The translations under genes were made by a program, and so were the position numbers. This document shows, one piece after another, positions 5,501 to 53,791 of a stretch of DNA of 55,239 nt. The notes under the pieces are model-generated. The model ran no database searches. It saw only the letters and a program-made list of their open reading frames with translations, and was not told the DNA's origin. The first letter of the stretch is position 1; each line of letters opens with the position of its first letter. This stretch comes from Syntrophales bacterium (GTDB lineage: Bacteria; Desulfobacterota; Syntrophia; Syntrophales; JACQWR01), in the NCBI GenBank assembly GCA_035283845.1, contig DATESZ010000155.1:1-55239 (forward strand). Direction: 5' to 3'.

Positions 5501-6163
5501 AAATATCAGCAGGATCGCTGATAAAAGACGCTTGGCCCACCTGGAGTTTTCGCCCATTGTGGCAGAGAATTCATTTGTAAAAATTTGTAATCTATCACAA
5601 AGAACCTCCAGTTTATACGTCATATCGCTTATCGTCTCCGGATTTGCTTCACCGGTTGTAATCATCTGCCGAATTTTAATTCCCAGTTCCGTCAATTCAG
5701 CGGCATACTTATCTGACCTTGCCCACAATTTGATGCCCTTATCCATATATTCAAAATTCCGAAATGTTTTAAAAAGGAAAATCATCCCCTCGATATCTTC
5801 CCGATGGCTGCCCCCCTTTTGAAAACCTTCGTGCACGACCGAAAGATCGGGGTGCAATTTTTCCAGTTCCATGCGAGCCATTTTGTAGCCAGTTATCCCT
5901 GCCATGTCCTCCAGAAATAGCTCGTATTTCTCTTCACTGCGTTTCATGGCGTATTCCAACAGATGCATAGCAGCGCTATTCACTCCTTTTGAATAGCTGG
6001 ATTCAGCGTTGATATACGCCCTTAAGGAAGAAAGGATGCCCAGCCCGAAGTTGCCAATAAGGAACATGCCGGCAATAGATGCCAGCACTACGAATATCGT
6101 AATGTACAGCTTGATCTTCAGGGAACGATCTGATGATTTTGTTTCAGTCGAAAAATTATTCAT
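2531..6163 (-). CDS. Hybrid sensor histidine kinase (TM, GAF, coiled coil, HisKA, HATPase_c, three receiver domains)
   Basis: GAF-like IGAIYIAEGDDRLRLVGSYA...GLIGQAA; long E/Q/K coiled coil; H-box [15 protein letters not shown]; DTGIGIP...GGTGLGLSISREL; three REC domains (ILVIEDDP, LLVVEDNE, ILVVDDDM...DIMMPVMDGYE). Confidence 0.85.
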   Translation of the reverse strand: MNNFSTETKSSDRSLKIKLYITIFVVLASIAGMFLIGNFGLGILSSLRAYINAESSYSKGVNSAAMHLLEYAMKRSEEKYELFLEDMAGITGYKMARMELEKLHPDLSVVHEGFQKGGSHREDIEGMIFLFKTFRNFEYMDKGIKLWARSDKYAAELTELGIKIRQMITTGEANPETISDMTYKLEVLCDRLQIFTNEFSATMGENSRWAKRLLSAILLIFAMVAAFICLGGLLFIVKIIQKMQNYSKELLDLNRMKAGQTAMHEMTQGEQDFSVVAPRVISHLCEYIGANIGAIYIAEGDDRLRLVGSYAYEKRKGSSDEFSFGEGLIGQAALEKKYIIMTHCPDDYVHIQSGIGSASPKNIIAYPLMKDGAVKGVVELGSLHEFSDWDIHFLERASINIAIVIEIIQTRNKTAALLEQTQQQNEELKVQEEELRRTNEELEEQDKALKESEEQLRVQQEELEVTNQELEERSEDLRQQKEEVVKRNQDIERARQLIEIKAKELEVASKYKSEFLANMSHELRTPLNSLMILSSLLMGNKDKNLTEKQVKFCSTINSAGADLLNLINDILDLSKIEAGKIVIHPEDIKLSRIIEDIKAKLEPIVQKKGLELKYQIDERIPERIVSDPQFLSQILNNLLSNAIKFTEKGHVALTIHKPTKEDMQVIGMPIEAVDGYIACSVADTGIGIPADKQNLIFEAFQQADASIRRKFGGTGLGLSISRELSRHLGGGIRLESELGKGSKFTSVISIVAQADKLKDSLSDAGQSTKATRMPTDVPDAALDSDRSEPAQVRDIDGMPVTSPQDVENIRDDRRKISKGDKAILVIEDDPVFARTLMDMAREQGFNALVAWEGKAALHLADFYIPSAIILDLGLPGGMDGLTILTKLKENLNTRHIPVHIISGHETKQESLRRGAVGFLRKPVSLDQLNGVFGRIESVISKQVKRLLVVEDNETESDSLKELLADENVEVVTAACAREALQAIKKGGFDCIVLDLGLPDMSGIELLENMRLSDHEPYVPVIVFTGKELTPEERVMLDKYAERVTIKDVRSPERLLDETALFMHRVEKDLPEEKRRVIRMLHDRDAIFDGRQILVVDDDMRNVFALISALEEKGLKIFTAANGQECLDMLAENTGIDLVLMDIMMPVMDGYEATRQIREQPRFKNLPIITLTAKAMKGDRASCIEAGASDYLSKPVDMEKLQSMLRVWLYK

Positions 6164-6181
6164 ACTTTGCCTTCCTTGCCG

Positions 6182-6294
6182 TTCACCTGAAAATACCTTT
6201 CACCCTCCCCCTCACCCCCTCCCCTTGAGGGAGGGGGAAGGGGGAGGGGTAATTTTCATTATCCTTTGTGACGGACACCGTCATGAGGGTTTCA
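6182..6294. repeat. 113-bp palindromic intergenic element, copy 1 of type A
   Basis: Identical except for one base to 19297..19409. Contains a C-tract/G-tract hairpin (ccctccccctcaccccctcccc ttga gggagggggaagggggagggg) and a tgacgg-aca-ccgtca hairpin. Its right end overlaps the stop codon of the MinD-like gene. Confidence 0.85.
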
Positions 6295-7518
6295 TTCGAA
6301 AAGATACCTTTTTTCTATCTGGTTCAGCCTGAAGGCCATCCTTTCCATTTCCCGGCTTTGCGGCAAGTCCGGAGTCAGGGCCACAAAAGGCGTGATCCGG
6401 TTGACGGAGTTGCTGATATCGTCGCTGGTGGCCATGGTTCCCAGCACCTGATTGTCAATATGCAGGTACTGCCTTACCACCTTCTGAAGGTTTTGAACGA
6501 TCTTCATATCCTGGCTGCTGTTAACCATGTTGCCGACAATCTGGAAGCGTTGGCGGGCCAGTACGGCGGCAGCGGTGCGGCGGGCCGGATGAGCCTCCTC
6601 CAGAGCGCCGATGAGGCCATGGAGCTTCTGAGGATCGGAGCCGGCCTGGTCCAGAAGGCAGGCGAATCCGCCGGAGCGTTTCAGGTCATGGAGGAATGCA
6701 GACTTGATAAAACCATAGGCATTCTGCAGCGAGGTCACCTGAGGCGTCACGACGATGATTTTATCGCCGGCCAGCCGGTACAGATCGAGCGTTTCATCGT
6801 TCATGCCGGCGCCCAGGTCGATCACCAGACAATCGGCATCGACCTGCCCGAGGTCGGAAAGCAGACGCGACATTTCCTTAGCCAGGAAGGCATCCACCTT
6901 GTTCTGGGCGCCGCAAATCAGGCGCAGACCATGAAAGGCGGTGGCAACCGTGATCTCGTCAAGGGAACGCTCTTTACGCAGGTAATCCTCTAAAGAGCTC
7001 TCAATCCTGGTTATGCCCAGCAGGGTATTGCAGTTGCAATTACCGAAATCGCCGTCCAGGAGGGCGACTTTGTGCTGCAGGTGCGATAAAGTAAGCGCCA
7101 GGTTCACCGCTACGATCGTTTTGCCGACGCCGCCCTTACCCCCGCCCACGGCAATCGTTTGACCGGCCTTATTGCGAACCACGTCAGGAGAAAGCGCCTC
7201 CCCATGTCCCTCAACTTCATCCAGGCCGACCTCCGGCCGGACAGGTCGAGGTCTGTTCTTTTCATTTTTAGTGACCCAGATCCTGACAACCCGGCCACCC
7301 TCCTCGGCGCTCTCATACCGTACGAGCGCACCGCTTAGCTCTATCTCGTTTCCTGTCGCAGGGTCCCGGAGAAAGAAAGCGAAATTGCCTGCACACAACC
7401 TCTGGATGGTCTCGTCAGAAAAACCTTCAGCACACTCAACTTGCAGACCGGCGGCCGATATGGACGCCACCTCATACTGGTGGCCGTCAAAGACAAACGT
7501 GGCCTTGATCAGATCCAT
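6292..7518 (-). CDS. MinD/ParA-family P-loop ATPase with an N-terminal beta-rich (PilZ-like?) extension
   Basis: Deviant Walker A GGGKGGVGKT, A' LLDGDFG, Walker B CLVIDLGAG. The ~110-aa N-terminal extension has SISAAGLQVE, which resembles the PilZ DxSxxG patch, but no RxxxR motif is present. It starts 1 nt after the stop of the mamK-like gene. Confidence 0.75.
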   Translation of the reverse strand: MDLIKATFVFDGHQYEVASISAAGLQVECAEGFSDETIQRLCAGNFAFFLRDPATGNEIELSGALVRYESAEEGGRVVRIWVTKNEKNRPRPVRPEVGLDEVEGHGEALSPDVVRNKAGQTIAVGGGKGGVGKTIVAVNLALTLSHLQHKVALLDGDFGNCNCNTLLGITRIESSLEDYLRKERSLDEITVATAFHGLRLICGAQNKVDAFLAKEMSRLLSDLGQVDADCLVIDLGAGMNDETLDLYRLAGDKIIVVTPQVTSLQNAYGFIKSAFLHDLKRSGGFACLLDQAGSDPQKLHGLIGALEEAHPARRTAAAVLARQRFQIVGNMVNSSQDMKIVQNLQKVVRQYLHIDNQVLGTMATSDDISNSVNRITPFVALTPDLPQSREMERMAFRLNQIEKRYLFE

Positions 7519-7519
7519 C

Positions 7520-8665
7520 CTACACCGAGGCGCTGATCAGCGCACCCATGGCGGTCGCCCGCAGCGGGTCGTGGGCCAGGCGCACCGACGATATTGCTAT
7601 TGGCATGGGGACCTCCTTCATGAGCTGCTCGAACTTAACCTTGAACCCATTCGGCAGGCATGTGCCGCCGGCCAGGACGATCGGTATGGCCTGATTGAGC
7701 CGGGGCAGTCTGTCGGACCGGGAGAGAATGCCTGACAATGTGGAAAGAAGGGTCATGATCAGGTCTTCATAGTAGATAATGAGCGCATTCTCCAGATTGC
7801 TCCTGGGGGTCCTGGCAAAGTCGAGGGATTCTTCCTTGATGATCCGCACGCGGTTTACCGTTTCGTGCATCATCCGGGCGACGGACGCGTCAACATCATC
7901 CCCGCCCCGGCTGATGCTGAAAACAAGTACCGGCACGGACAAGAAGGAGAAGCAGATATTGCACATGCCGGCGCCCATGCTGATACCGATGCCGGTGAAA
8001 TTGTCGCCGGCGAGCTCAGAAATCACAACCGCCATCCCTTCATTGACGCTTTTGGGCTTGTAACCCATCCCTGCCAGGTACTTCTTCAGTATGCCTTCGT
8101 GGAAAACCAGATCCGCCTCGAATCCCACCTCCGGGGCCGGCACGCTGAAGCACAGGGGCTGAGCCATTTCTGCCGCCTTGGGAAGCACCAGGTTGATAAT
8201 TTCCTTCATGGCCGGGATGGCGTAGATCTCCTCCGACGTAATAAGACCCTTTTTCATGGGGCGGCGGATTTCACTGTTAAAGATATTCGCAAACTGCAAT
8301 GCGTCATAGCCCAGGACCACGGTTTCATCTTTTATCTTGGTATGGGCCATCTGGCTCTTCACCAGCATATCCTTCAGGAACTGGGTTTCTGAAACGGCGA
8401 TAAAAGCGTTCATCTGATCGGCGCCGATCTGGTCGTCCTGTTTTATGCTGACGATCCGGCTGGTTCCGATATCGAGGCCGTACGCTTTTTTAGCCACGGA
8501 TCTGCTTTCCACATTCTTCCCCGATTCCTTCAGACCATCGACCTTGGTGATCAGCTTGTCCAGCGCAAGAGGATCAACCGTCTCACTGGCTCCCTGCAAC
8601 AGGTCATCCAAAACATTTTTATCATCCTTGTCGTCATCATTTTCTTCAACCATGTCACCCTCCAT
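7520..8665 (-). CDS. mamK: MamK-like actin-family filament protein
   Basis: Actin-fold motifs LDIGTSRIV (phosphate 1), GIGISMGAGMCNI (phosphate 2) and IVLAGGTCLP (adenosine). Size and magnetosome-gene context fit MamK. Confidence 0.7.
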   Translation of the reverse strand: MEGDMVEENDDDKDDKNVLDDLLQGASETVDPLALDKLITKVDGLKESGKNVESRSVAKKAYGLDIGTSRIVSIKQDDQIGADQMNAFIAVSETQFLKDMLVKSQMAHTKIKDETVVLGYDALQFANIFNSEIRRPMKKGLITSEEIYAIPAMKEIINLVLPKAAEMAQPLCFSVPAPEVGFEADLVFHEGILKKYLAGMGYKPKSVNEGMAVVISELAGDNFTGIGISMGAGMCNICFSFLSVPVLVFSISRGGDDVDASVARMMHETVNRVRIIKEESLDFARTPRSNLENALIIYYEDLIMTLLSTLSGILSRSDRLPRLNQAIPIVLAGGTCLPNGFKVKFEQLMKEVPMPIAISSVRLAHDPLRATAMGALISASV

Positions 8666-14543: not shown

Positions 14544-16550
14544 CTATAAACGGTTGAATTCCTCCGCTACGCTCTCCTCATTCACAGAATCTTTGCCGGC
14601 CAGGGTAGCCGACGCACAAACACCATCCAGCATGCGGATCGCCTTGCCGGGAAAACACTGCCCGGGCAGAAAACGGGCCGCCATTTCCACACAGGCTGCC
14701 AGTGCCTGTTCGGTAATCTTCAATCCGTAATGCTTTTCATAGACAGACTTAATGCCTCTCAGGATAGCGAGGCTCTGGGGTACGTCCGGTTCAGGAATGG
14801 TAACGGTCTGGAAGCGCCGCGCCAGCGCTCGGTCCGGTTCGATGTACTGCCGGTATTCCTCGGAGGTTGTTGCTCCGATGCAGGGAAACTCACCGCGCGC
14901 CAGGGAAGGTTTCAGGATGTTCTCCGCACCCGTCGAGCCTTCCGTCGCTCCCATCCCGAGCAGCGTATGAATCTCGTCGATGAAAACGATGATCCGATCG
15001 ACGTTGCTTTTTACCTCCTCCACCAGCCCCTCGATGCGGGTTTCAAACTCCCCACGATACTTGGTCCCGGAAAGCATGGCGTTCAGGTTCAATGCAATGA
15101 TCCGTTTATCCCTGAACATGACGGGCACTTCCTTTTTCACGATCAACTGGGCCAGCCCCTCCACCACCGCTGTTTTACCGACGCCCGCCTTACCTACCAG
15201 GATGGGATTATTGGCCTCCATCTGCGACAATACCTTAAGGCAGGAATATATCTCCCGGTCGCGGCCGACTATCGGCTTGATCCGGTTCTCCTCCACCTGC
15301 CCCGTGAGGTCCCGGCCAAACCGCTCCAGAAAGTGCAGACGCCGGCCGGCTGTTTCATCCCGGATAACACCGAAAATGGGCGCGACTTCAGGGGGCAGGT
15401 CCAGGGTAGGGGCCAGTATGACCACAAAACTATGCCTTTGTTTTAGCACCTCCGGCATGGATTTAATGATGGAAATCAGCTCCACGAATTCCTGGCCCGA
15501 CATATTTTCCCGCCGCAGGTAATAATGAAAATCCTCCAGCAGATAGAGGGTATTTTTCTGGCATTCGTTACGGATCACGCCGAGGGCTTCGAGGGGCGAT
15601 AGTTTGGCGTGGAGCAGATAATTATCGCTAAACATATATTTTCCCGCATACTTACCGCCGATATCCTGAAATCCTTCGGAAAAGGTCCACTGGAGAGGGA
15701 TTAAGCCCATCTGCGCGGAGACACGCGTAAACCTGTCGATCAGCTTGCGTGAATCAGTATAGGCCGCGATAAAGAGACTGATGTCCGAGGCAAATTGCTT
15801 CGCCAGGGCGCCATCCTCGGCAGATATCGGGGGTGCAATCAGCCTCCGCAGAGACCGTTCCCCGTCCCGGGCCCCATCCTGGCCGCTGTCCGGTGACGGG
15901 AGGCGGGCGGAATCACTGCTGTAATCCGCAGGCGGCGTAGCGGCTGCGCCTGCGTCATTGGCCAGGGCATAATCGCTGCCGGGCATTACCTCTTCCTTGA
16001 ATTCTTCAACAGGCCAGTCAGTAAAATCGCTGCGGACAGCCTTCTGGCGACCGCCGTCGCGGTCCGGCTGCGGCGGAAAAAAATCCGGGGCATTATGCTG
16101 CCCGGGCAAGCCCCCGGTAAAGTTGAACCACCTGAGATCGAAGCCCTTGATCAGTTGCGCCTGTTCGGCCTGGCTCATGGCCAGGAACCGGTCGGAAAAG
16201 TAAACATAAATGTCAAATTCAAAAGGCGTGGGCAGGGGGTGCTTTTTTATAAAGGGAAAAGTGCCCGCGCCATTTTTTCCTTTCATCAAGCGGTAACTCC
16301 TCTCCAGATAAGCCTTTTCCGAGTCCAGGGGATCATAAAAGGCGAGGCGGAACTCACCGGCAACGCCGCTGCCCACGAGCTGCTGTAAATCGTGCATCAG
16401 TCCTCCCATTAATGCTTCGGGAATAATGCCGTAGTAGCCGTTCAGCAGTTCAATATCGTAGCTCAGGGTCTTATAAAGGACAGCTTTGGTCGCCCGGACC
16501 GTTTCCGGTCGTATGGGGTATCTCTCTTTTTTGAATAGACCCTGAAACAC
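14544..16550 (-). CDS. AAA+ ATPase with a single ClpA/ClpB D1-like module and a novel ~390-aa N-terminal region
   Basis: Walker [16 protein letters not shown], Walker [36 protein letters not shown] (Clp D1 signature region). No second AAA module. GTG start overlaps the upstream stop by 1 nt. Confidence 0.8.
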
Positions 16551-25415: not shown

Positions 25416-26270
25416 TCAGCGTCGCGATATCAATTCGATTATCTCGGATTTCGTCATCCTTTTGTCAGCCTCAATTCCCTTTTCGCTGCATATTTGCAAC
25501 AGATCGTTCTTTGTCAAAGTTTCCAGCTCAACAGTGGCCGCTGCTTCAGTTTCGGCTGCCGTCAATGTTGCACTGGCAAAGGGCGCATCCGATTCAGCCA
25601 TCTCTTTTGGCGGCTCCTGCTCCGGCGTTTCGGCTGCCTCCACAAGAATAACAGCAGATTCATCCGACTTGTTGTCTGTCGGCGCTTCGGCTTCCGGCTC
25701 CGCAGGTTCGGGAGCATCCGATGCCTGCTCCGGCGTCGGCGTTGCGGCCTCTTCCACAGCGACAGCTATTGTTTCTTCCGTCGCAGCGGCCATTGACGCT
25801 GAGCTGTCCTTCGGTAATTCAGTCATGTGTGATTCCTCTGTGTCCGCAGCCTGTTGTGCAGTCCGTTCCGGCATCGTCTTCACTCCCGCGGCAACAAGTT
25901 CTTGAGCCGCTTCTTTCTTGGCCGCGGCCGCTGCCTTTTCCTCTGCCTCAATTTCCTGGAGACGCTGTCTGATGTTATCTATTTCCGCCTGATGCTCGGT
26001 AACACGTCTTACCCCTGTCTTCGCGGCTGCCGAAAGATTTGTCCTGTCTTCTGACGTATCTGCGCGAAGCGCAACTTCCTTGCCTATCTCGAAGTACAGC
26101 CGCTCTATCTTCCTTTCATATTCTCTCAGCCGAGAACGGAGTGTTCCCTTTTCTCCGGGTAAAACAATGGTTTTGATCGAAGACGCCGCATCGTAAAAAT
26201 TCAAAAGCGCGGAGCCGCCAGCATTTAAAACCCGTGCTATGCCTCTGAGCAATACACCTCGCTGTTCCAT
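25416..26270 (-). CDS. Hypothetical protein with the RIxxLYxEIG motif, an acidic Ala/Glu/Thr-rich linker and a C-terminal Rho_N/SAP-like helix pair
   Basis: YERKIERLYFEIGKEVAL motif. C-terminus KNDLLQICSEKGIEADKRMTKSEIIELISRR resembles the Rho N-terminal/SAP fold pattern. Confidence 0.5.
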   Translation of the reverse strand: MEQRGVLLRGIARVLNAGGSALLNFYDAASSIKTIVLPGEKGTLRSRLREYERKIERLYFEIGKEVALRADTSEDRTNLSAAAKTGVRRVTEHQAEIDNIRQRLQEIEAEEKAAAAAKKEAAQELVAAGVKTMPERTAQQAADTEESHMTELPKDSSASMAAATEETIAVAVEEAATPTPEQASDAPEPAEPEAEAPTDNKSDESAVILVEAAETPEQEPPKEMAESDAPFASATLTAAETEAAATVELETLTKNDLLQICSEKGIEADKRMTKSEIIELISRR

Positions 26271-26290
26271 TAAGTCCCCCTTTCCTTTAT

Positions 26291-26389
26291 ATGAAAATCT
26301 CCCCCTCCCTTTATCCCTCCCCCTCGACGGGGGAGGGAGGGGTGGGGGTGATTCTCATGCTTCGTTAATCCAACCCCAAGCATGGGTGT
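26291..26389. repeat. Palindromic intergenic element, type B copy
   Basis: atgaaaatct + ccccctccctttatccctccccctcgacgggggagggaggggtgggggt (49 bp, identical to 33404..33452) + attctcat + stem catgctt...aagcatg + ggtgt. Lies just 3' of the parB-like stop. Confidence 0.85.
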
Positions 26390-26391
26390 CG

Positions 26392-27036
26392 TTATATGAT
26401 AAGCTCATCGATGATGTTTAAAAGATTTTGCAATTCCAGCAAAAGCTGGGTTTTCAGGCATTGCCAGCCTGGGTCAAATTTATCATAATGCCGACATTCA
26501 TCCTGTGTCTTCTCAGGTAAACGATTAAGTTTTATTGCCGCGGAAATAGCCGGCTGCGCTTTGCCAATGGCAACAGCGAGTTTTTCCTCGGTATAGCCGT
26601 GCTGCTCCATCATACAGCCCAGGGCCGCGGCCTCTTCCACAGGTTTGAGGTTTTCACGCTGCAGGTTCTCAATCAGCGAGATTTCCAGGGGATTGCCCTC
26701 GGTAAAAATGGCCGGGATCTTCTCCAGACCCGCCATTTTTGCCGCTCGCAAACGCCTGTTGCCGGCCACTAAAATGATCTGACCAGTTTTGGCTTTACGG
26801 ACGATAACGGGCTGGTACAACCTGTTGTGTTTGATCGAGTTGGCCAGCCCTTCGAGAGCTACCGGGTCAAAATATTTTTCCGGCAGTTCCGGGTCGGTAA
26901 GAATCAGGTTAATGTCCAACAGGTAATAACTGCCCTCCCGGCAGTCGTTCAGAATGGCCGGATGATCTTCCTGCCTTGGTCTTTCCTGTGCCAGCTTGGT
27001 TGTTTTGCCGGCTAATTTACTTCTAATGTCTGTCAT
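26392..27036 (-). CDS. parB: ParB/Spo0J-family protein (ParB N-terminal domain + HTH)
   Basis: LVAGNRRLRAAKMAGLEKIPAI (arginine patch, GxRRxRA), ISLIENLQRENL, HTH YTEEKLAVAIGKAQPAISAAIKLNRLP. ATGA overlap with the upstream parA. Confidence 0.8.
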   Translation of the reverse strand: MTDIRSKLAGKTTKLAQERPRQEDHPAILNDCREGSYYLLDINLILTDPELPEKYFDPVALEGLANSIKHNRLYQPVIVRKAKTGQIILVAGNRRLRAAKMAGLEKIPAIFTEGNPLEISLIENLQRENLKPVEEAAALGCMMEQHGYTEEKLAVAIGKAQPAISAAIKLNRLPEKTQDECRHYDKFDPGWQCLKTQLLLELQNLLNIIDELII

Positions 27037-27788
27037 AGGCTTAGAAACTCACTAACAAGTTGTTCATAATCCTGTGAGCCGAGGCTATCGAGTTTGAAAT
27101 CGAAAATCGGCTCCTGGGCCATTTGGGATTGATTCAGGGCTTCATTGCGTCTGATATAGGTATTGAGGATCAAGTGCTTAAAAGGCTCTAACTGCTGGAA
27201 TACCCAGTCATTACTGATTTTGTTTCTGCTGTCGTACTTGGTCAGGAGGATCCGGATAAAATCGGTCTTGTTAAAGTCGCTGTTTTTTACATGTTCGATG
27301 GTTTCCATCAGATCGGCAAAACCGTCCAGGGCGTAGCGTCCCATTTCGCAAGGGACAATGATAAAATTGGCGGCATATAAGGAGTTGATCGTCAATGTTC
27401 CCAGGGTAGGCCGGCAGTCAATGACAATATAATCAAAATCAAGACCGTCAATGGCTTTTTTCAATAGGGTTTCTCTGAAAAGTTCCGGAGCTAATTGCTG
27501 CTCAATCTTATCGAGGTGGATATGTGAGGGGACAATAAACAGATTATCGGCTTTTGTCGGCAGAATCGCATCTCCGATAGGCTTTTTCCTGGCCAGGACG
27601 TCGATGATCGAGGCGGTAAAGCTCTCCGGCTCGATTCCTATGCCAATCGTTGAATGGGCCTGGGGGTCCATGTCAATTAACAAGGTCCTTTTGTCTTGCC
27701 GGGCCAGGCCTGCCGCAAAATTGATTGACGTAGTCGTCTTGCCCACTCCGCCTTTCTGATTGATGATGGCAATGATGTTTTTATTCAT
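27033..27788 (-). CDS. parA: ParA/Soj-type partition ATPase
   Basis: IIAIINQKGGVGKTTTSINFAAGLA (deviant Walker A with signature Lys), LLIDMDPQ, YIVIDCRPTLG (Walker B). Confidence 0.9.
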   Translation of the reverse strand: MNKNIIAIINQKGGVGKTTTSINFAAGLARQDKRTLLIDMDPQAHSTIGIGIEPESFTASIIDVLARKKPIGDAILPTKADNLFIVPSHIHLDKIEQQLAPELFRETLLKKAIDGLDFDYIVIDCRPTLGTLTINSLYAANFIIVPCEMGRYALDGFADLMETIEHVKNSDFNKTDFIRILLTKYDSRNKISNDWVFQQLEPFKHLILNTYIRRNEALNQSQMAQEPIFDFKLDSLGSQDYEQLVSEFLSL

Positions 27789-27791
27789 ATC

Positions 27792-28697
27792 CTACAGCAC
27801 ATCTATGAGAAGCCGCAAGGCCAGAACAAATATACCCAGGGCAATAATTTTTTTTATGACCGAGGGGTGCGTCTTGAGTGAGAGATGCGCCCCCCAACTG
27901 GCGCCCAGGATCGTACCGGTACCCAGAAGAACGGCATAATCCAAATCTATGTAGCCAAGTCCGACAAAAGCGATAAAGCCGAAAAAACTCGTGACGGCCA
28001 GGATAAAATGAGATGTCGCCGTGGCTATATGAACCGGTATTCCCAGCACGGAATACATGAGGGGAACATGAATGACTCCCCCTCCGATCCCGAAGAGGCC
28101 TGAAAATATACCGATTAAAATACTGGCGGAAAAACCTACGGCCATGTCCGGCGCATAAGAATATTCCTCGCCCGCGGCATCCTTTAGATATCTCGTTATC
28201 GGCGCTTGCGCGGCTTTCGTCCTGACCAAGTAAATTTCGTTTCCGGAAAACAGGTAATAGGACAAGACAATTAGCAACAAACTGAAAATTAGGGAGAAGC
28301 TGCTGACAGTGAAAAACTGTGACAATAATGCCCCGACAAGGACGCCGGGGCTTGCGGCGACGGCGTACTTGATGCCAATTTCAAAATCGATCCGTTTCTG
28401 GGCGATATAGGCAAAGGTGCCGGATATCGCATTCAGCATGACAACCGCCATGGACGTGCCAATGGCATGCTGGGGTGAAAACCCGTAGAAAATAATGAGC
28501 ACCGGCACGTGGATGAAACCTCCGCCGGCGCCAATGAGGGTGCCGACAATCCCAATCAGGACGCCGGTATGAAAAACGATAATGGCCCCCAGAATACCCA
28601 GCGTCGCGTGTTCCGCGGTAATGGGCTGCGCCGCCATGGCGCTGCCTGCCATGAGAAAGATCATCCATCCCAGTAAGGTCGATAGCAGAATTTTCAA
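27792..28697 (-). CDS. TauE/SafE-family membrane transporter (mamO C-terminal-domain-like)
   Basis: Polytopic membrane protein with duplicated Gly-rich helices: GTLIGAGGGFIHVPVLII and GLFGIGGGVIHVPLMY. The TauE-like domain is the C-terminal half of MamO and is a separate gene in deep-branching magnetotactic bacteria (established knowledge, recalled). ATGA overlap with the upstream gene. Confidence 0.7.
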   Translation of the reverse strand: MKILLSTLLGWMIFLMAGSAMAAQPITAEHATLGILGAIIVFHTGVLIGIVGTLIGAGGGFIHVPVLIIFYGFSPQHAIGTSMAVVMLNAISGTFAYIAQKRIDFEIGIKYAVAASPGVLVGALLSQFFTVSSFSLIFSLLLIVLSYYLFSGNEIYLVRTKAAQAPITRYLKDAAGEEYSYAPDMAVGFSASILIGIFSGLFGIGGGVIHVPLMYSVLGIPVHIATATSHFILAVTSFFGFIAFVGLGYIDLDYAVLLGTGTILGASWGAHLSLKTHPSVIKKIIALGIFVLALRLLIDVL

Positions 28698-29584
28698 TGG
28701 GTTGCCCTAAACCGTTCCTTGAAAGTGCTATAAGCCTGCACAGCCTCTTGAAAATGAATCTTTGCCTCTTCCTTCAGCCCCTCGGAAGAAAACCTGTCCG
28801 GATGAAACGCAACTTTCAGGAATTTATAGATCCGATCTATGCGAGAAGGATCGGTTTCAGCGTCAAACCAGGGAAAATTCCGGGGCTGTCGATGGTCGCG
28901 AAGGTTCTCCTCCTGCCCGCCGCCGGATTGAAGCATAATCAGCTTCAGGTCATAGGTATGCTCCTGCATATCGTTTATATTGAGAACCAGTTCATATAAG
29001 GACATTTTTTCCTTCTTTATCTCGTCATCCAGCAGCTCTGTTTGTCTTTTCAGCACCGCTGCTGCCCGTGCAATTTCCCGATCATTGACATTAACCAGTT
29101 CCTGCAGGTGGTTTCTCAATTCATGGGCAAGGAAGGCCAGGGATATCTTCCTTTCTTCCTCATCCATACGTATTTTTTTCCGCAAAGAACTGAGCTGCGC
29201 TTCCACGGCGCTGCTTTCAAAACTTTTCAGTCTATTCTTCAAAACCGACTCGCGCTCAGAGATCCGATCCCTTTCTTCTTTCATTTCTCGCAGAGTCTCT
29301 TCCAGTCGCTTGATAATGACGGCAAACGCCTCTTTCTCGGCGCGCACTTCCTGAATCGAGCGCAAATAGCCCTCCATGAGGACATATTTGGCAATCAGCA
29401 TCCCCGCCGCCAATGAGGCCGCAATAGTCGTATAAATATGCGCTGTTGCCTTTAACTGGCCGGGAAATATGGCCGGGTAACGGGCATGGATCAACCAGCA
29501 AAGCCCTCCGGCGATGGCGGAGAAGTAAGCCAGTTTATCGGTAAAAGACGATTTTAAGATGCGAAATAGCAATTTCATAGGCAT
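28694..29584 (-). CDS. Membrane-anchored coiled-coil protein with a C-terminal J domain
   Basis: Two N-terminal TM helices and a central coiled coil. The C-terminal IDRIYKFLKVAFHPDRFSSEGLKEEAKIHFQEAVQAYSTFKERF contains the HPD tripeptide. Confidence 0.65.
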   Translation of the reverse strand: MPMKLLFRILKSSFTDKLAYFSAIAGGLCWLIHARYPAIFPGQLKATAHIYTTIAASLAAGMLIAKYVLMEGYLRSIQEVRAEKEAFAVIIKRLEETLREMKEERDRISERESVLKNRLKSFESSAVEAQLSSLRKKIRMDEEERKISLAFLAHELRNHLQELVNVNDREIARAAAVLKRQTELLDDEIKKEKMSLYELVLNINDMQEHTYDLKLIMLQSGGGQEENLRDHRQPRNFPWFDAETDPSRIDRIYKFLKVAFHPDRFSSEGLKEEAKIHFQEAVQAYSTFKERFRATH

Positions 29585-41372: not shown

Positions 41373-42035
41373 TTATATCTTCAATCCATAGATGCCCATG
41401 GCAATATCCTGTTCCAGGGCTATCTGGGTATTCTCAATCTGAATGACATAAGCGGGAAATTTTTGGCGGATTTTTATCTTTTTCCCGGGAGACACGCCAA
41501 AAGAAACCAGTTTGCCGATCAAGACCGGGTCAGCTTTTCTGATAAAGGATATTCTGACCTCATCGCCTATATCCAGGGAATCGAGAGATTTAACAAACGT
41601 TTTTACAGAATCTTCAGCCCTCTTGCAGCAATCCCCTTCCGGTATCGGGAAACCGTGGGGACATTCCCGCGGGTGGCCAAGCAAGGTGCAGATCGCCTCG
41701 GTAAGACCGGGCGCCAGTGTATGCTCATACTCGCAGGCCGACTCCTCCATTTCCCCAAACATCATCCCCAGGACATCGACAAGCAGCCTTTCGGCCAGTC
41801 TGTGCCTGCGTATGATAGGCTGCGCCTGCTCTTTTCCCTGGGCTGTGAGAGTGATCTCCGTGCCGCTTATTTTCACGAGGCCGCTTTTTTCCAGCTCCGA
41901 TAAGATTTCGTCATCCACAATATATCCATAGGCGCCCTCATGTTCCTTCAATACGTTTTCTACCGTGCATCTTCCCTTTTCCTCCAACGTCCAGACAGTC
42001 TCGATCGTTTCAGCCGTTACATCTACAATTTTCAT
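41373..42035 (-). CDS. DtxR-family metal-dependent regulator fused to a FeoA-like C-terminal domain
   Basis: Winged-helix N-terminus, dimerisation/metal region RRHRLAERLLVDVLGM...ESACEYEH, and a C-terminal SH3-like segment GDEVRISFIRKADPVLIGKLVSFGVSPGKKIKIRQ (FeoA pattern). Confidence 0.75.
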   Translation of the reverse strand: MKIVDVTAETIETVWTLEEKGRCTVENVLKEHEGAYGYIVDDEILSELEKSGLVKISGTEITLTAQGKEQAQPIIRRHRLAERLLVDVLGMMFGEMEESACEYEHTLAPGLTEAICTLLGHPRECPHGFPIPEGDCCKRAEDSVKTFVKSLDSLDIGDEVRISFIRKADPVLIGKLVSFGVSPGKKIKIRQKFPAYVIQIENTQIALEQDIAMGIYGLKI

Positions 42036-42045
42036 ATGCCACCCC

Positions 42046-43992
42046 TTAAAAAGAGAAATTATTCCACTGGAAAAAATAGTTCATGATTCCCCCGGTCATA
42101 ATGGCGCAGGCGGTAACGGAAAGAATAATGGCCAGTGCCTTCTTCGCTCCCTGTTCCTTGATAATGAGCAAGAAGTTTGCTACACAGGGGATAAAAAGTA
42201 TCGTGACAATCATCGCTACCACCAGTTGCCGATTATCCATGACGCCGGTGTCCACCAATTTTTTGAGCACTGCTATGCCTGCCTCTCCCCTGATGAAGCC
42301 CATAATCAGGGATTCGGCAAACTGCGGCGGCAGCCCCATAAAGCCTTTGACGACAGGCGCAAAGAAGTTCTCCAGATAAACCAAAAGACCGATCTTTTCT
42401 ACCAGAAAAAGTCCCAGCGCGCCGATGACGAACAGCGGCAGCGCCTCCCGGAGAAACAGCAGCGACCGGTAGGAAGTCTTTTTTATAATATTTTGCATGC
42501 TCGGAATGCGTATCGGAGGAATTTCCATGATAAAATAGGAAGGATCTACCGTCATCAGCCTGCTCAGGATAAAACCTGCGGCAATAGTAAGAGAAAAGAC
42601 AACCCCGAACACCACGAAAAAGGCAGCGAAAGAAACCTGCGCCAGAATAACCAAAATCATACTCAATTTTGCTGAACAGGGAATGCCCAGCGAAAGCAGA
42701 AAGATGGCGATAAACCGTTCTCTTTTGCTGTCCAGCACCCTGGTGGATAGTGTAGCCATGGTGACACAGGAAAAGCCGAGCACCATCGGCAGCACGGCCT
42801 TGCCGTTTAGACCTATTTTACTGAACAATCTGTTGAGCAGGATGGATAGCCGGGTAAAGTATCCCGAATCCTCAATAAAACCAAAGGTAAAGAAGAAAAC
42901 AACAATCACCGGTAAAACCAGGCCGAGAAGTGGAACAATCGCCATGGCGTAGAGACCGTACTCTCCCATAATAAGCTCCCTCGCCGGGGCGTATGGTATC
43001 ATTACCACGATATTATTAAGAAATGAGGCCACGACGAGGCCAAAAAAATCTTTCACTAAAAAGTCAACTAAATAACCTGCGGCAAATTTTCCCACAATAA
43101 AATACAGCACTACCAGCATGATAAAGAGGATCAGAAAACCGGCAATCGGAGTCAAGGCCATATTGCCTATCCTGTCTAATAACAGCGTGGAGGAAATTGG
43201 TGTGAAATAGATTGACTCGGTGAATACTGCTTCTGCCCAGGCATTGTTAGCCCGGTAAATAATCAGATCAAGTGGCTGGTACAGTGATTTCTTGGCCTCA
43301 GCCATGCCGCTCCGGGCGGCATCGTTATTATTGAGCGCGCTTATCTGCTGGGCCCAGCGTGCGGTCTCCTGCTCATCGGCAAGAGAGAAAAGCGACAAGG
43401 CCCGTTTTTTCCATTCCGGTTGCCTCTCGTCAGGCATAAGCGCCGTCAGACGCTGCATCGCATCTGTCAGAACGAAAGGCAACCGGGAGGGAAAGGATGG
43501 TATCCGGGCCGTGCCTAAGGCCGTAATAAGCGCGGCGATGCCAGCGCCTTCCGATGCCACCGTTTCGATTACGGAGGCGCCCAGCATATCTTCCAGTTTA
43601 TGCCGCTTGACCTTAATCCCCTTCTGGGCGGCTTCGTCAACCATATTCAAAACAAGCACCAGGGGAAGGCGAAATTCTGCCAACAATGCAGTAAGCGCCA
43701 ATGATCGTTTGATATTTTTTGCATCAGCGACTTGCACAACCAGGTCAGGCGTCTCGTCAATCAGGATATTCCGCGCCACCTTTTCATTATCAGCGTTGGA
43801 AAGCAGATTATACACGCCTGGAATATCAATTATTTCGATATTGTCCCCTTCGACCTTGAGGGCGCCTCTTTTGATCTCCACGACGGTGCCGGGGTGGGTG
43901 GAGATACTGACTCTGTCGTTGATCAAGCGGCTGAATACGGTGCTTTTACCGACATTCGGCAGGCCTAATAGCAAAACTCTCTTCAATATCAA
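42046..43992 (-). CDS. feoB: Ferrous iron transporter FeoB
   Basis: G1 LLGLPNVGKSTVF, G3 DIPGVY, G4 NMVD, followed by about 10 TM helices. Confidence 0.9.
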   Translation of the reverse strand: MILKRVLLLGLPNVGKSTVFSRLINDRVSISTHPGTVVEIKRGALKVEGDNIEIIDIPGVYNLLSNADNEKVARNILIDETPDLVVQVADAKNIKRSLALTALLAEFRLPLVLVLNMVDEAAQKGIKVKRHKLEDMLGASVIETVASEGAGIAALITALGTARIPSFPSRLPFVLTDAMQRLTALMPDERQPEWKKRALSLFSLADEQETARWAQQISALNNNDAARSGMAEAKKSLYQPLDLIIYRANNAWAEAVFTESIYFTPISSTLLLDRIGNMALTPIAGFLILFIMLVVLYFIVGKFAAGYLVDFLVKDFFGLVVASFLNNIVVMIPYAPARELIMGEYGLYAMAIVPLLGLVLPVIVVFFFTFGFIEDSGYFTRLSILLNRLFSKIGLNGKAVLPMVLGFSCVTMATLSTRVLDSKRERFIAIFLLSLGIPCSAKLSMILVILAQVSFAAFFVVFGVVFSLTIAAGFILSRLMTVDPSYFIMEIPPIRIPSMQNIIKKTSYRSLLFLREALPLFVIGALGLFLVEKIGLLVYLENFFAPVVKGFMGLPPQFAESLIMGFIRGEAGIAVLKKLVDTGVMDNRQLVVAMIVTILFIPCVANFLLIIKEQGAKKALAIILSVTACAIMTGGIMNYFFQWNNFSF

Positions 43993-50446: not shown

Positions 50447-50517
50447 TAAAATCAGATGGTTAAGACGTGGGAACGGGAATGCCGCCATGTTGAGAGCAGG
50501 GCGATCAACAATGCCGT

Positions 50518-51114
50518 TTGTTATTGCACAGTAATTTGAAGAGTGAAACCACATCACCTTCTCCTCTGGCAAAGGAAAAACAGCCGGTCCCTGCCGTTCA
50601 CTCGTCTGCCGTCCAATCCGCACCGAGTGCCTTTCCCGCTCCAGGCACTGCGCCGCCTCCTCATACTGCAAGTCCTGTTGAAGCGACGCATGACGTCGTC
50701 TTGCTCATAGACAGCTCCGGAAGAATGAAGCGAGCTGATCCAGGAAATTACCGGACTGAGGCAGCAAAGCTTTTCACATCATTGCTGGACAAGGATGACC
50801 GCGTCGGGATCATCGGCTTTGGCGATTCAGCGACCGTATTGATGCCGCTTACTCAGAATAGGCGGCAAAACCGAACGGAACTCATACATGCGGTCAACCG
50901 GATCACTTCCCGGGAATTGACCACGGACATCACGGAGGCCGCGCGTAAAGCGTTCAACGCCCTGAAGACCGACCAGTCCAGGCAGGGAATCATCATCATG
51001 CTTTCCGACGGCAAGATCGATCCCGGATCAAAGGAAAAGGATGATGCGTCCTTAGCAGATCTCAATCTGCTCATATCGGAACTGGCGCGATCTACAGACG
51101 GGAAAAGATCATGA
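50518..51114 (+). CDS. vWA-domain protein, apparently C-terminally truncated
   Basis: DVVLLIDSSGRM (MIDAS with the last Ser replaced), RVGIIGFGDSATVL, IIIMLSDGK. The ORF ends before the final beta strands expected in a vWA fold. Confidence 0.5.
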   Translation: MLLHSNLKSETTSPSPLAKEKQPVPAVHSSAVQSAPSAFPAPGTAPPPHTASPVEATHDVVLLIDSSGRMKRADPGNYRTEAAKLFTSLLDKDDRVGIIGFGDSATVLMPLTQNRRQNRTELIHAVNRITSRELTTDITEAARKAFNALKTDQSRQGIIIMLSDGKIDPGSKEKDDASLADLNLLISELARSTDGKRS

Positions 51115-51290
51115 CGTTCAGGGCCGTGGAGACTTCAGCAACCGTACGGACTACGGAAAAGAAAGAGCAGTTGCCTGCCAAGCCGAGTCTTCGCGAGAAC
51201 AAAGATGTCTCCTGGATCGTGATCCTGATGCAGTTCTTTGCCGTGAACGCGCTGATCATAGCCCACGTTGTGCTTGGGCTGTTCATCTGA
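51111..51290 (+). CDS. 59-aa ORF with a C-terminal TM helix, ATGA-coupled to the vWA ORF (not in the track)
   Basis: Own translation: MTFRAVETSATVRTTEKKEQLPAKPSLRENKDVSWIVILMQFFAVNALIIAHVVLGLFI. It could instead be the displaced C-terminal anchor of a once longer vWA gene. Confidence 0.3.
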   Translation: MTFRAVETSATVRTTEKKEQLPAKPSLRENKDVSWIVILMQFFAVNALIIAHVVLGLFI

Positions 51291-51485
51291 AAAAAGGTTG
51301 GTACGATGAGGAAAACGAAATGATAAAGATCTACGGCCTCTATTTCTTGCTGCTCACTGAGCTGCTTGCGGTCCTCGCGGCAGCAGCGCTTCTTTTCGTA
51401 CGAATGCGGAAATACCGCTCAATCAATATAATTTAATCGCATCGCCAACCCCTGATTTTCGATGCAACACGATGCAAAATATCCC

Positions 51486-51514
51486 TTGACAGCCAAAAAC
51501 AGCCCCCCTATACT
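51486..51514 (+). promoter_or_regulatory. Near-consensus sigma70-type promoter upstream of the Kelch gene
   Basis: TTGACA (51486..51491), a 17-nt spacer, then TATACT (51509..51514), 49 nt upstream of the ATG at 51563. Confidence 0.45.
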
Positions 51515-51562
51515 TCCGCCACGAAAAAGGAAGTTCTTATCAATCAATCAATTACTTCCACT

Positions 51563-53791
51563 ATGAAAAAACGATGCGTTATCAATCGTCTGCTTGCTTT
51601 GCGCATGGGGAGCCTCTGCTGGCTCCTGATCCTCCTCATCGCGTGCAGCGGCGACACCCAACCTCCCGGCACGGTCACCGAGGGGACCTGGGCTCCCACC
51701 GGGAGCATGACGGCAGCCCGAGACCACTTCACCGCGACCCTCCTTCCGAGCGGGAAGGTCCTCATAGTAGGCGGCAACGGAGCGGGCGGAGCCATTCTCC
51801 CCTGGTCCGAGCTCTTTAATCCTTCCTCAGCAACCTGGACCCCCACCGGCTCCCTGACCAATGCACGGAGCAGTCACACCGCAACGCTGCTCCCGAACGG
51901 CAAGGTGCTGGTAGCCGGCGGCTCCGGGACTGGCGGCCGGCTGGCCACCGCGGAATTGTACGATCCCGCCAACGGCGCCTGGGCCCCGACCGGCAGTATG
52001 GCGACTGCCAGGATCGGACATACGGCGACGCTGCTGCCCAACGGCAAGGTGCTGGTAGCCGGTGGCTCCGGCGGCCTGCTGACGTTGTCATCCGCAGAGT
52101 TGTATGACCCCGCCACCGGCGCCTGGTCGCCGACGAGCACCTTGCTGTCCGGCCGCACCAATCACAGCGCCACCCTTCTGCCAACCGGACTCGTGCTGGT
52201 TACCGGCGGAGTGAAGGCGGGAGCCTTTGAACCGTTATCCTCATCGGAGACGTACGACCCCTCTACCGGAGCCTGGACGACGACCGGGGACTTGCACGAC
52301 GCCCGGCAGATGCACACGGCCACGCTCCTGGCCACCGGTACGGTGCTGGTCGTCGGGGGCTTCGGCGGCCCGGCCGGCACCCTTGCATCGGCAGAGCTCT
52401 ACGATCCGACGTCCGGCATCTGGACCGCCACCGGCTCGTTGTACGCTGCCCGCAACAGCCACACTGCCACTCTCCTGCCGAACGGCAAGGCCCTGATCGC
52501 GGGCGGCCTGAGCGGAGAGACCATCCTGGCCTCAGCAGAACTTTTCGATCCAGCTTCAGGCCTGTGGATCAGCGCCGGGTCGCTGGCAGCCGCGCGAGCT
52601 GGTCACACCGCCGTCCTCCTTCCGACGGGAAAGACCTTGGTGTCTGGAGGCTTCGACGCCGGCGGTGTCTTGGCCTCGGCCGAGCTGTACCGGACGGTGT
52701 TGCCCGGCACGGAGGGCCTGTGGACGGCAACCGGGAGCCTTAGCAAGGCGCGGCGGTTTCCTCGCACCCTTCTGCTCACCTTTGGTCCCCATGCCGGGAA
52801 ACTACTCGTCGAGGGAGGCTTGGACCAGACGGGCGCCCCCCTCGCGTCGGCGGAACTGTATGCCTCAACCACAGGGGCCTGGAGCGGGACAGGCTCCTTG
52901 AACATTGCGCGGGGGAACCACACGGCAACATTGCTGCCGGACGGCAAGACAGTAGTGGCGGGAGGCATTGACGGCAACGCGGTTTCCCTTACCTCGTCCG
53001 AACGCTATGATCCGCTAACAGGCCAGTGGACGACAACAGGCAGTCTCAAGACCGGCAGGGCCAATCACACGGCCACCCTGTTGACCTCCGGCCCCCACGC
53101 CGGCAAGGTACTGGTCGCCGGCGGCTTTGGCGACGCAGGTCCCCTGAATTCCGCGGAACTGTACGATCCGGCTATCGGGCTGTGGTCGCCCACCGGTAAC
53201 ATGAGCGCTCCCAGGACCGGACATCAGGCCGTCATGCTGACGGCCGGCCCGAAGGCCGGTCAAGTGCTCGTAATGGGAGGCTCTGACGACCAGGGCATTC
53301 TCGCCTCCGCCGAGCTCTACGACCCGGCGACCGGGCTGTGGACGCAGACGGGCAGCCTGGAGACGGCGCGCGTCAACTTCACCGCGACCGTGCTGACGGT
53401 CGGAAAGAGTGCGAGCCAGGTACTGGCCGTCGGCGGCGCCGCAGGGTTCCAAACCTTCGCGTCGGCGGAGTTATATGACCCAGTCGCCGGGACGTGGGCG
53501 CCGACGGGCAGTTCAATCGACGGTCGTCAGCTCCATACCGCCACGCTGCTACCCAACGGCAGCGTCATGATCGCCGGCGGCATCAGATCCGGCGCCTTCC
53601 TCCCGCTCCCCTCTGCCGAGATTTATGATCCGGTTGCGGGCACCTGGGCTGCCACCGGGAACCTGATCGCCGGGCGGAGCAGCCAGACGGCTGTTCTGCT
53701 GCCCATTGGCCAGGCGCTGATCTCGGGCGGATTCGGCGGACCGGCCGGAACACTGGAATCATCCGAACTCTATTCCACCTCCATTCCCTAA
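51563..53791 (+). CDS. Kelch-repeat lipoprotein (about 14 repeats)
   Basis: Lipobox LLIACSG. There are 14 recurrences of the HTATLLPxGKVLVxGG...SAELYDPxxGxW motif. G+C is very high relative to the rest of the window (40 of 60 in the line 52081..52140). Confidence 0.85.
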   Translation: MKKRCVINRLLALRMGSLCWLLILLIACSGDTQPPGTVTEGTWAPTGSMTAARDHFTATLLPSGKVLIVGGNGAGGAILPWSELFNPSSATWTPTGSLTNARSSHTATLLPNGKVLVAGGSGTGGRLATAELYDPANGAWAPTGSMATARIGHTATLLPNGKVLVAGGSGGLLTLSSAELYDPATGAWSPTSTLLSGRTNHSATLLPTGLVLVTGGVKAGAFEPLSSSETYDPSTGAWTTTGDLHDARQMHTATLLATGTVLVVGGFGGPAGTLASAELYDPTSGIWTATGSLYAARNSHTATLLPNGKALIAGGLSGETILASAELFDPASGLWISAGSLAAARAGHTAVLLPTGKTLVSGGFDAGGVLASAELYRTVLPGTEGLWTATGSLSKARRFPRTLLLTFGPHAGKLLVEGGLDQTGAPLASAELYASTTGAWSGTGSLNIARGNHTATLLPDGKTVVAGGIDGNAVSLTSSERYDPLTGQWTTTGSLKTGRANHTATLLTSGPHAGKVLVAGGFGDAGPLNSAELYDPAIGLWSPTGNMSAPRTGHQAVMLTAGPKAGQVLVMGGSDDQGILASAELYDPATGLWTQTGSLETARVNFTATVLTVGKSASQVLAVGGAAGFQTFASAELYDPVAGTWAPTGSSIDGRQLHTATLLPNGSVMIAGGIRSGAFLPLPSAEIYDPVAGTWAATGNLIAGRSSQTAVLLPIGQALISGGFGGPAGTLESSELYSTSIP

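Follow-up and report, generated by a model that had tools for sequence, protein, structure and literature searches.

The 55,239-nt contig DATESZ010000155.1 of a Syntrophales bacterium (GenBank assembly GCA_035283845.1), analyzed over its whole length and referred to below as the window, carries a man/mad-type magnetosome gene cluster in which a parA-parB pair is embedded. This pair originates from the partition cassette of a plasmid or mobile element, it is linked to magnetosome cluster genes in many related loci, and its ParB has lost residues of the cytidine triphosphate (CTP) switch as well as part of the DNA-binding domain. The explanation that we favor, to which we give slightly less than an even chance, is that the pair consists of a domesticated ParA and a DNA-independent, ParB-derived partner that together act on magnetosome-related cargo.

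The window was annotated on the basis of its open reading frames, their translations and profile matches, and almost all of its genes are located on the minus strand. The cluster starts with the genes for FeoB, DtxR-FeoA, EcsC, VWA, MamP, MamM, MamQ-II, MamB, MamA, MamE and MamQ-I, which are followed by those for a WD40-like protein, a coiled-coil protein, MamO-Cter, ParA, ParB and an acidic 284-aa protein that we named X284. Next come three two-component genes, a HEAT-repeat (mad23-like) gene and further genes, and the order continues with a Volactin-type actin and a MinD-like 408-aa ATPase (mad28/mad29-like), a GAF-domain histidine kinase (GAF-HK), CheR and CheB. The pair and its immediate surroundings are laid out as follows:

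27792..28697, minus strand: mamO-Cter (TauE family), directly upstream of ParA.
27033..27788, minus strand: ParA, 251 aa, Soj-type deviant Walker A ATPase.
26392..27036, minus strand: ParB derivative, 214 aa, with N-terminal peptide, ParB/Srx domain, four of the seven helices of the DNA-binding domain and C-terminal helix.
26271..26391, minus strand: spacer between ParB and X284, 121 nt, with a C/G-rich hairpin.

The TauE-family gene (Pfam TauE, 2e-47), whose product also matches the C-terminal part of MamO, ends with a TAG stop codon that is separated by 3 nt from the ATG of ParA, and it is probably cotranscribed with parA. The stop codon of ParA and the start codon of ParB overlap in the sequence ATGA. 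An earlier, sequence-only reading of this DNA had described this layout, together with the KGGVGKT motif of ParA and a 214-aa ParB having a GxRRxRA arginine patch (here GNRRLRA), and our analysis confirmed each of these features. The same 214-aa ParB and the same gene order are present in at least six independent assemblies, and the short ParB is therefore not an assembly artefact. It had also been stated that there is no replication gene, plasmid gene or origin context nearby. Indeed, no homologues of rep, type IV secretion system (T4SS), TraG or relaxase genes were found in the window, and no oriC-type neighbors (rsmG/mnmG/dnaA, gidAB) are present among its annotated genes. The hairpin in the spacer downstream of ParB (26318..26340) has the arms CCCTCCCCC and GGGGGAGGG and the loop GTCGA; it is C/G-rich and contains no U-tract. 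A scan for promoters and terminators around parAB gave counts that did not exceed the shuffled expectation.

ParA matches the profiles AAA_31 (2e-53) and CbiA (1e-21). Its Walker A motif is NQKGGVGKTTT, with KGGVGKT at residues 12-18 (nt 27735..27755), and it has the signature lysine and the motifs LIDMDPQ and VIDCRP (Walker A' and B aspartates), as is characteristic of deviant Walker A ATPases. The nearest solved structures are ParA 8RAY (1e-45) and the Soj proteins of H. pylori and T. thermophilus (1e-33), and the match to McdA (2e-15) is weaker than those to Soj/ParA. Residue R214 (in IRRNEAL) aligns with the PRN arginine in the structure of Myxococcus xanthus ParA, which we take to be the arginine for non-specific DNA binding, the function of R214 being assigned by alignment only; this column is invariant in 46 relatives. 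Compared with the plasmid ParAs, only one clade-specific substitution (A238S) is present. Judged from its sequence, ParA would be an unchanged Soj ATPase of the nucleoid-binding type that is under very strong purifying selection. In one lineage (L080, 5343..5795; L081, 8..460; L-numbers are locus labels), an internal deletion has shrunk ParA to a 150-aa open reading frame, and ParB is still 283 aa long and shows the motif states of the magnetosome clade described below.

The ParB derivative is composed of the following parts:

26983..27036, minus strand: N-terminal peptide, residues 1-18, MTDIRSKLAGKTTKLAQE.
26656..26931, minus strand: ParB/Srx nucleotide-binding domain, residues 36-127.
26479..26655, minus strand: remnant of the helix-turn-helix (HTH) domain for DNA binding, residues 128-186, four helices.
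26398..26469, minus strand: conserved C-terminal helix, residues 190-213, KTQLLLELQNLLNIIDELI, present in all short and long family members.

The protein matches ParB_N (9e-20, residues 40-126) and HTH_ParB (5e-11, residues 128-182), the latter with profile positions 1-55 of 102 only. Its nearest solved structures are Spo0J, ParB and Noc, which cover residues ~40-180 only. An AlphaFold model contains an Srx-type domain, four helices belonging to the DNA-binding domain and, at the C-terminus, a helix of 24 residues; when this model was used in a Foldseek search, ~146 residues aligned to ParB and Noc structures, and PadC (6RYK) was matched with an E-value of 4e-5. The basic N-terminus MTDIRKKLAGKTTKLA is strongly conserved and common to the window ParB and its plasmid relatives, with R5, K7, K11, K14 and L15 being invariant or nearly so across the family; it deviates from the usual LG(R/K)GL consensus. 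By analogy with the ParB literature (PMC12462528), residues 1-18 are presumed to be the peptide that binds ParA and stimulates its ATPase activity. The C-terminal helix is probably a dimerization element.

Residues of the nucleotide-binding domain were mapped to those of the M. xanthus ParB (MxParB) via the conserved boxes and an alignment to B. subtilis Spo0J. Box I of the window ParB reads L51-P-E53 (nt 26878..26886) instead of the canonical Q-P-R, and Box II reads G92-N93-R94-R95 (nt 26752..26763) instead of GERR, with R94 and R95 being kept. Box III (ENLQR) is present in intact form, but the combination of LPE, GNRR and ENLQR is not the CTPase motif set of type-I ParABS systems. The catalytic QPR/GERR residues are highly conserved among ParB proteins; in MxParB, Q52 and E93 are catalytic, mutants in these residues bind CTP and close without parS, and the R54A mutant binds nucleotide without closing (bioRxiv 10.1101/2021.05.05.442810). 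All ParBs that are linked to a rep gene have QPR[KQ] as Box I and GERR as Box II. All ParBs of the magnetosome clade have QP[E/K/D/I/S] or LPE, plus G[K/R/N]RR, so that neither the arginine of Box I nor the glutamate of Box II is left in any of them; in the sub-clade of the window the Box I glutamine is lost additionally.

The short C-terminus that had been ascribed to ParB turned out to be something else. Relative to 283-aa relatives, the protein has an in-frame internal deletion of ~70 aa with its junction at K186/F187 (nt 26478/26479), which takes away the linker and three of the seven DNA-binding helices (the second half of the domain) and leaves the C-terminal helix in place. The complete seven-helix HTH domain of a type-I ParB is consequently not present. 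A simple C-terminal truncation or a pseudogene is ruled out, as the C-terminal helix is in frame and constrained. The pair looks intact and is co-oriented and tightly packed with mam genes, but the earlier description of it as complete does not hold for ParB, which is without the CTPase residues and half of its DNA-binding domain. Other lineages have other in-frame deletions: 199-aa forms and 179-aa sister ParBs also lack the HTH core, and forms of 208 and 228 aa are present as well. In total, at least four different in-frame deletion boundaries were observed, and the C-terminal helix is preserved in all cases. Full-length ParBs of 284-285 aa are embedded at this very position in L027, L028, L029 and L033, which means that the deletions are derived and recurrent.

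The window proteins were mapped onto 88 fetched loci. ParA homologues that are 82-93% identical are abundant in metagenomes, and a scan of the genome contigs of species representatives, among which the genome of the window itself is not included, gave seven loci. The sequence-only reading had proposed to look for co-occurrence with mam genes in other clusters, and homologous pairs are indeed present in many related ones. In the clade closest to the window, parAB adjoins cluster genes (mam/mad/man or feo) in at least five arrangements, in which cc296 stands for the coiled-coil protein encoded upstream of mamO-Cter:

Arrangement 1, cc296/TauE-parAB-X284: window, L008, L027, L029, L031 and short contigs.
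Arrangement 2, FeoB-parAB-DtxR/FeoA: L002 and L009.
Arrangement 3, mad29-like gene-parAB-GAF-HK-CheR-CheB: L001.
Arrangement 4, mad28/29-ten two-component genes-parAB-FeoB fragment-DtxR/FeoA: L087.
Arrangement 5, rpoN-hpf-ptsN-hprK-rapZ…nfeD-band7-parA-parB-(ABC transporter, opposite strand)-VWA-MamP-MamM: L035/L088, at the cluster edge.

The junctions that hold parAB in other loci are closed in the window, with 129 nt between mad29 and the GAF-HK gene (6163..6292) and ~10 nt between FeoB and DtxR-FeoA (42035..42046), and this indicates that parAB has been relocated within the cluster. In the L035/L088 lineage parAB is chromosomal because it lies beside the rpoN operon; the possibility that the cluster is plasmid-borne is for this reason disfavored for that lineage. 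A ParA-family ATPase is linked to the cluster genes across lineages, as is found for systems that position cargo.

Outside the magnetosome clade, the nearest relatives (66-86% identical for ParA and 48-64% for ParB) are part of parA-parB-iterons-rep backbones. In at least 14 loci, parA-parB is followed by four to five 22-bp iterons and a gene for a ~380-aa protein with a weak Replication-initiator-A (RPA) match. These plasmid-type relatives also carry VirB4, VirB11, a lytic transglycosylase (SLT), a TraF-like peptidase, TraG-like coupling proteins, Replic_Relax relaxases, ArdC and IS21, and a homologue in Desulfatiglans anilini (67%; contig AULM01000044) is accompanied by Rep3, TraG-like, relaxase and toxin-antitoxin genes. 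A neighbor-joining tree of ParA unites the magnetosome-linked pairs in a single clade that is nested among the rep-linked relatives, and the same clade is marked independently by the motif states of ParB. By tblastn, no match to Rep, VirB4, VirB11, TraG, relaxase or ArdC was obtained in the window or in any magnetosome-linked locus, and no rep, iterons, integrase, T4SS or relaxase was found within 10-27 kb in any of these loci. Likewise, the window and the magnetosome-linked loci contain no tandem repeats downstream of parB. A protein search of PLSDB with ParA gave nothing above 42% identity. The pair is thus of plasmid or mobile-element origin and was later left without rep and iterons. Of the things that the sequence-only reading had said would speak against it, grouping with plasmid partition systems is what we found as far as the origin is concerned; as to another, that orthologous clusters would never contain the pair, many of them do.

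The repeats of the plasmid-type loci deserve mention in their own right. In L044 (9437..9588), L041 (5051..5159) and L050 (11629..11791), four to five 22-bp iterons and TAAATAACGTT repeats lie between parB and the ~380-aa RPA-like gene. These loci apparently represent an undescribed iteron-type replicon family of conjugative plasmids from uncultured Desulfobacterota.

Selection on the two proteins was estimated as ratios of nonsynonymous to synonymous substitution rates (dN/dS), which are pairwise NG86 estimates at dS values of 0.5-0.9, several of the plasmid ParB comparisons being saturated. ParA has the lowest values in the cluster (0.045-0.08), those of the Mam proteins being 0.13-0.39 and those of ParB 0.16-0.40. 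Between lineages whose ParB lost the HTH core, ParA is still at 0.05-0.06. The 199-aa ParB group reports on evolution after the deletion: its N-domain has values of 0.15-0.23 and its C-terminal helix 0.09, and the HTH remnant is at 0.45-0.6. After the deletion, therefore, the N-domain and the C-terminal helix are still constrained and the HTH remnant is relaxed. For full-length ParBs of the magnetosome clade, the median in the second half of the DNA-binding domain is 0.39, compared with 0.14 in plasmid ParBs, and this half is relaxed there too. The N-terminal peptide and the Srx domain of this clade are constrained as in plasmid ParBs, the median for residues 1-35 of magnetosome-linked ParBs being 0.11. 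The window ParB retains the core HTH helices, for which dN/dS is ~0.15 relative to full-length relatives.

No convincing parS had been recognized by the sequence-only reading, whose best matches agreed at 12 and 11 of 16 positions. Consistent with this, no site within three mismatches of the canonical parS TGTTTCACGTGAAACA is present in the window or in any fetched locus, so that the parS near the operon that is typical of type-I ParABS was not found in the 55-kb window or in these loci. Only in distant non-magnetosome relatives is a palindrome of 16 bp, TGTCGGCRYGCCGACA, found repeatedly, within parB or close to it (L010, position 3324; L011, 11287 and 13076; L012, 7154; L013, 2427; L018, 11305), and in some of them it encodes the ParB motif CRRAD. 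From its sequence and location it is a candidate for a non-canonical parS of that branch; the magnetosome clade contains no such site within two mismatches. A search for perfect and near-perfect palindromes in the window and 20 loci gave none in the magnetosome clade and no shared near-palindromes. Alignment of the spacers downstream of parB in L001, L002 and L009 revealed no conservation, and the spacers flanking the pair contain no iterons, parS-like palindromes or operator-like repeats.

These results give the following picture. A partition cassette from a plasmid lost rep and iterons, took up a fixed place at or within the magnetosome cluster in a Syntrophus-like clade of Desulfobacterota, and stayed under selection as it shed the parts that deal with DNA. 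In ParB, residues of the CTP switch went first, namely the arginine of Box I and the glutamate of GERR, and the sub-clade of the window later lost the Box I glutamine as well; constraint on the DNA-binding domain then relaxed, and this domain was finally removed in part or in whole by in-frame deletions that arose independently in several sister lineages and in the window. The putative ParA-activating peptide at the N-terminus, the ParB/Srx domain and the C-terminal helix were retained throughout. ParA has all that ATP-dependent binding to the nucleoid would require. With the putative parts for dimerization and for presenting the peptides kept, and parS control and DNA binding predicted to be lost, the ParB derivative has the architecture of a DNA-independent ParA partner; the presentation of two such peptides is what makes closed ParB clamps good activators of ParA (PMC12462528). 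We infer that it interacts with ParA and acts independently of DNA: ParA-ATP dimers would bind the nucleoid, and the dimeric ParB derivative, presenting two N-terminal peptides independently of parS, would bind ParA and trigger its ATPase activity. In this way, it would not be DNA that the pair positions or distributes but something made by the magnetosome cluster, be it the chain, its actin-like filaments or a site of assembly. Magnetosome-related cargo is the most economical guess given the persistent linkage to the cluster. A role in positioning magnetosomes had been suggested from the sequence before; the selection pattern and the loss of DNA-binding parts of ParB strengthen this suggestion, which nevertheless stays an inference. 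Tethering to the nucleoid via ParB, which had been suggested as well, has become less likely with the loss of the DNA-binding domain. A more specific proposal is that the ParB derivative, being without CTPase and DNA-binding domain, is an adaptor that couples magnetosome chains (or MamK/Mad28 filaments) to nucleoid ParA gradients; we consider this possible but on balance unlikely.

Several observations weigh against a domesticated pair acting on magnetosome cargo. Activation of ParA requires juxtaposed N-terminal peptides, and gate closure normally makes ParB a good activator (PMC12462528); by analogy with MxParB, the substitution at the position equivalent to R54 may prevent that closure. The internally deleted ParA of L080/L081 shows that the system can be lost. 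A metagenome-assembled genome of Syntrophus sp. (GCA_037138695.1) has parAB and mam genes on separate contigs, and in L035/L088 a distance of 5.4 kb separates parAB from the first gene of the cluster. Descriptions of such clusters from Nitrospirota contain no parAB, mamO-Cter being followed directly by mad23, and magnetosome formation in general thus does not depend on parAB. X284, a candidate for the link to the cargo, was rejected as such since its family occurs away from parAB too and gave no fold match. Finally, the ParA tree is a neighbor-joining tree without bootstrap support, and the saturation of several plasmid comparisons applies to the pairwise NG86 values.

Among the alternatives, the one that survives best, though we hold it to be unlikely, is that parAB is an inherited island backbone that still serves DNA maintenance in an excised or extrachromosomal form, or is selfishly retained, has no magnetosome-specific function and is in late decay in the window. 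It would account for the nesting of parAB among the parAB-rep backbones of conjugative plasmids and for the pairs of L001 and L035/L088, which lie at the cluster edge beside core chromosomal genes, where an island backbone is expected. The insertion sequence fragments near L002, the progressive degeneration of ParB, the lineage with a deleted ParA and the proposed interphylum transfer of such clusters (PMC9376291) are in line with it too. However, such a backbone is difficult to reconcile with the absence of rep, iterons, integrase, T4SS and relaxase from the surroundings of every magnetosome-linked pair and with the lack of a parS candidate, and DNA partition is impossible once the centromere-binding domain has been deleted. 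Decay, moreover, predicts frameshifts; instead, ParB has undergone at least four in-frame deletions with its N-domain and C-terminal helix under purifying selection, and ParA is the most constrained cluster gene even where ParB is without HTH.

We consider it improbable that the ParB-derived protein is a regulator, like KorB, VirB or Noc, that together with ParA modulates transcription of the cluster or interferes with ParABS/DnaA of the host. ParB-fold proteins have repeatedly been recruited to roles other than segregation, often from mobile elements (PMC12704722), two-component regulators have been inserted beside parAB in several lineages, and the retention of the constrained core HTH helices in the window ParB would suit a regulator. 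Yet ParA and the N-terminal peptide of ParB are strongly constrained where the sister ParBs of 199 and 179 aa have no HTH core, and the flanking spacers are devoid of operator-like repeats. That the pair is the chromosomal soj-spo0J of the host, lying near the cluster by chance, is very improbable, because its Soj/Spo0J-like sequence and fold and the chromosomal position of the L088 pair beside rpoN-hpf-ptsN-hprK-rapZ are outweighed by its nesting among rep-linked plasmid pairs, the absence of canonical parS and oriC-type neighbors, the loss of the QPR/GERR catalytic residues in the whole clade and the deleted DNA-binding domain in the window ParB and its sisters.

A full-text search of the accessible literature found no paper on a ParA-ParB pair in a magnetosome cluster. 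The suggestion that such a pair is new holds in this respect, but not for ParA/MinD-type ATPases in general, as one, Mad29, is already known from these clusters. Like ParA of the window, Mad29 is a P-loop ATPase of the ParA/MinD superfamily; it differs in being a MinD-like protein of ~400 aa encoded beside the mad28 actin, and the 251-aa ParA is unlike it. The mad29-like gene of the window has no ParB partner. We recognize the pair as a new case of a known theme, that of ParB-fold proteins from mobile elements with other roles. The type-I cassettes of plasmids from uncultured Desulfobacterota (e.g., AULM01000044) share with the window the gene order, the 4-nt overlap, the N-terminal peptide of ParB and the C-terminal helix. 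In contrast to them, the window pair is without rep, iterons and conjugation genes and has mam/mad/man genes as neighbors, and its ParB no longer has the Q and R of Box I, the E of Box II or three of the DNA-binding helices.

The McdA/McdB system of carboxysomes and the PpfA/TlpT and ParC/ParP systems of chemoreceptor arrays resemble the window pair in that a ParA-family ATPase is encoded together with genes for its cargo, which is a putative one in the window. Partners of the McdB/TlpT/ParP class have an N-terminal ATPase-stimulating peptide and no centromere. They are, however, unrelated to ParB, and the window ParA is far closer to Soj than to McdA. A further parallel is PadC of M. xanthus, an adaptor with a ParB/Srx domain that recruits ParA to a bactofilin scaffold. 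In PadC, and as predicted here for the window ParB, a ParB/Srx domain engages ParA at a structure other than DNA without parS-dependent clamping. Unlike the window ParB, PadC is encoded by an orphan gene, has a bactofilin-binding domain and serves the chromosomal ParABS; the window ParB, known from its sequence and a model, is a direct and recent derivative of a canonical ParB that has not lost the N-terminal peptide and whose gene is still part of a parAB operon.

Three neighboring genes of the window are of further interest:

25416..26270, minus strand: X284, conserved downstream neighbor in the embedded clade.
28694..29584, minus strand: cc296, coiled-coil protein upstream of mamO-Cter, with a J-domain-like HPD motif.
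6292..7518, minus strand: mad29-like MinD/ParA-like ATPase, 408 aa, adjoining a Volactin-type actin (mad28-like, 7520..8665).

X284 is made up of three long helices (residues 2-131), a disordered acidic linker and, at its C-terminus, a HeH/Rho_N-like motif that is assigned with confidence. It belongs to a small, unnamed family of 66 proteins, two of which (P0305 and P0306) are fused to HEAT repeats, and a fold search in the PDB gave no match with E < 0.2. The C-terminal segment of cc296 (…AFHPDRF…) is J-domain-like, its match to Pfam DnaJ (E = 0.009) being below threshold, and in, for instance, L008, L027 and L029 cc296 is located directly upstream of ParA; it may be a membrane-anchored co-chaperone of the magnetosome cluster. 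As for the mad29-like gene, parAB lies just downstream of it in the relatives L001 and L087. So far, mad29 has been described only as encoding an ATPase-domain protein, which has been speculated to power chain assembly.

Other parts of the window gave additional observations. Between 21862 and 25350, on the minus strand, a block encoding a response regulator-histidine kinase, a histidine kinase binding cyclic nucleoside monophosphates and a response regulator with a PAS domain has a GC content of 0.39-0.42, compared with ~0.49 in its surroundings. It is missing at the corresponding position of L029, where h350 and the HEAT gene come immediately after X, and it gives the impression of having entered the cluster later. 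At 14544..16550 (minus strand), among mad-type genes, a 668-aa protein is encoded whose C-terminal half is an AAA+ module of the ClpB/ClpV/ClpA type (TIGR03346, 3e-94, residues 397-650). From 50500 to 55239 the GC content jumps to 0.60-0.65. The genes here are those for a VWA protein, a Kelch-repeat protein of 742 aa and a DUF6178 fragment, and an assembly junction or the presence of foreign DNA could account for the jump.

Positioning and inheritance of magnetosome chains are now ascribed to MamK, which is actin-like, and to its partners. If one large group of uncultured magnetotactic bacteria has a conserved ParA module, a second principle of positioning, based on the nucleoid, would be added. 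If the ParB derivative is indeed an adaptor for cargo, it would provide even spacing or inheritance of the organelle and, as an adaptor derived from ParB, be the first of its kind for an organelle bounded by a membrane, and the full-length, motif-loss and domain-loss forms would constitute a stepwise natural series leading from DNA partition to cargo positioning. The ParBs form a graded series in the presence of a near-invariant ParA, from the canonical plasmid form via loss of the catalytic E and the R, and then also of the Box I Q, to independent deletions in the DNA-binding domain; this makes it testable which features of ParB are needed for the activation of ParA and how ParA partners that do not act on DNA originate. 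In addition, the plasmid ancestry of a pair that has become fixed within the cluster or at its edge is a concrete clue to the vehicle of the horizontal transfers that have been proposed for man/mad-type clusters.

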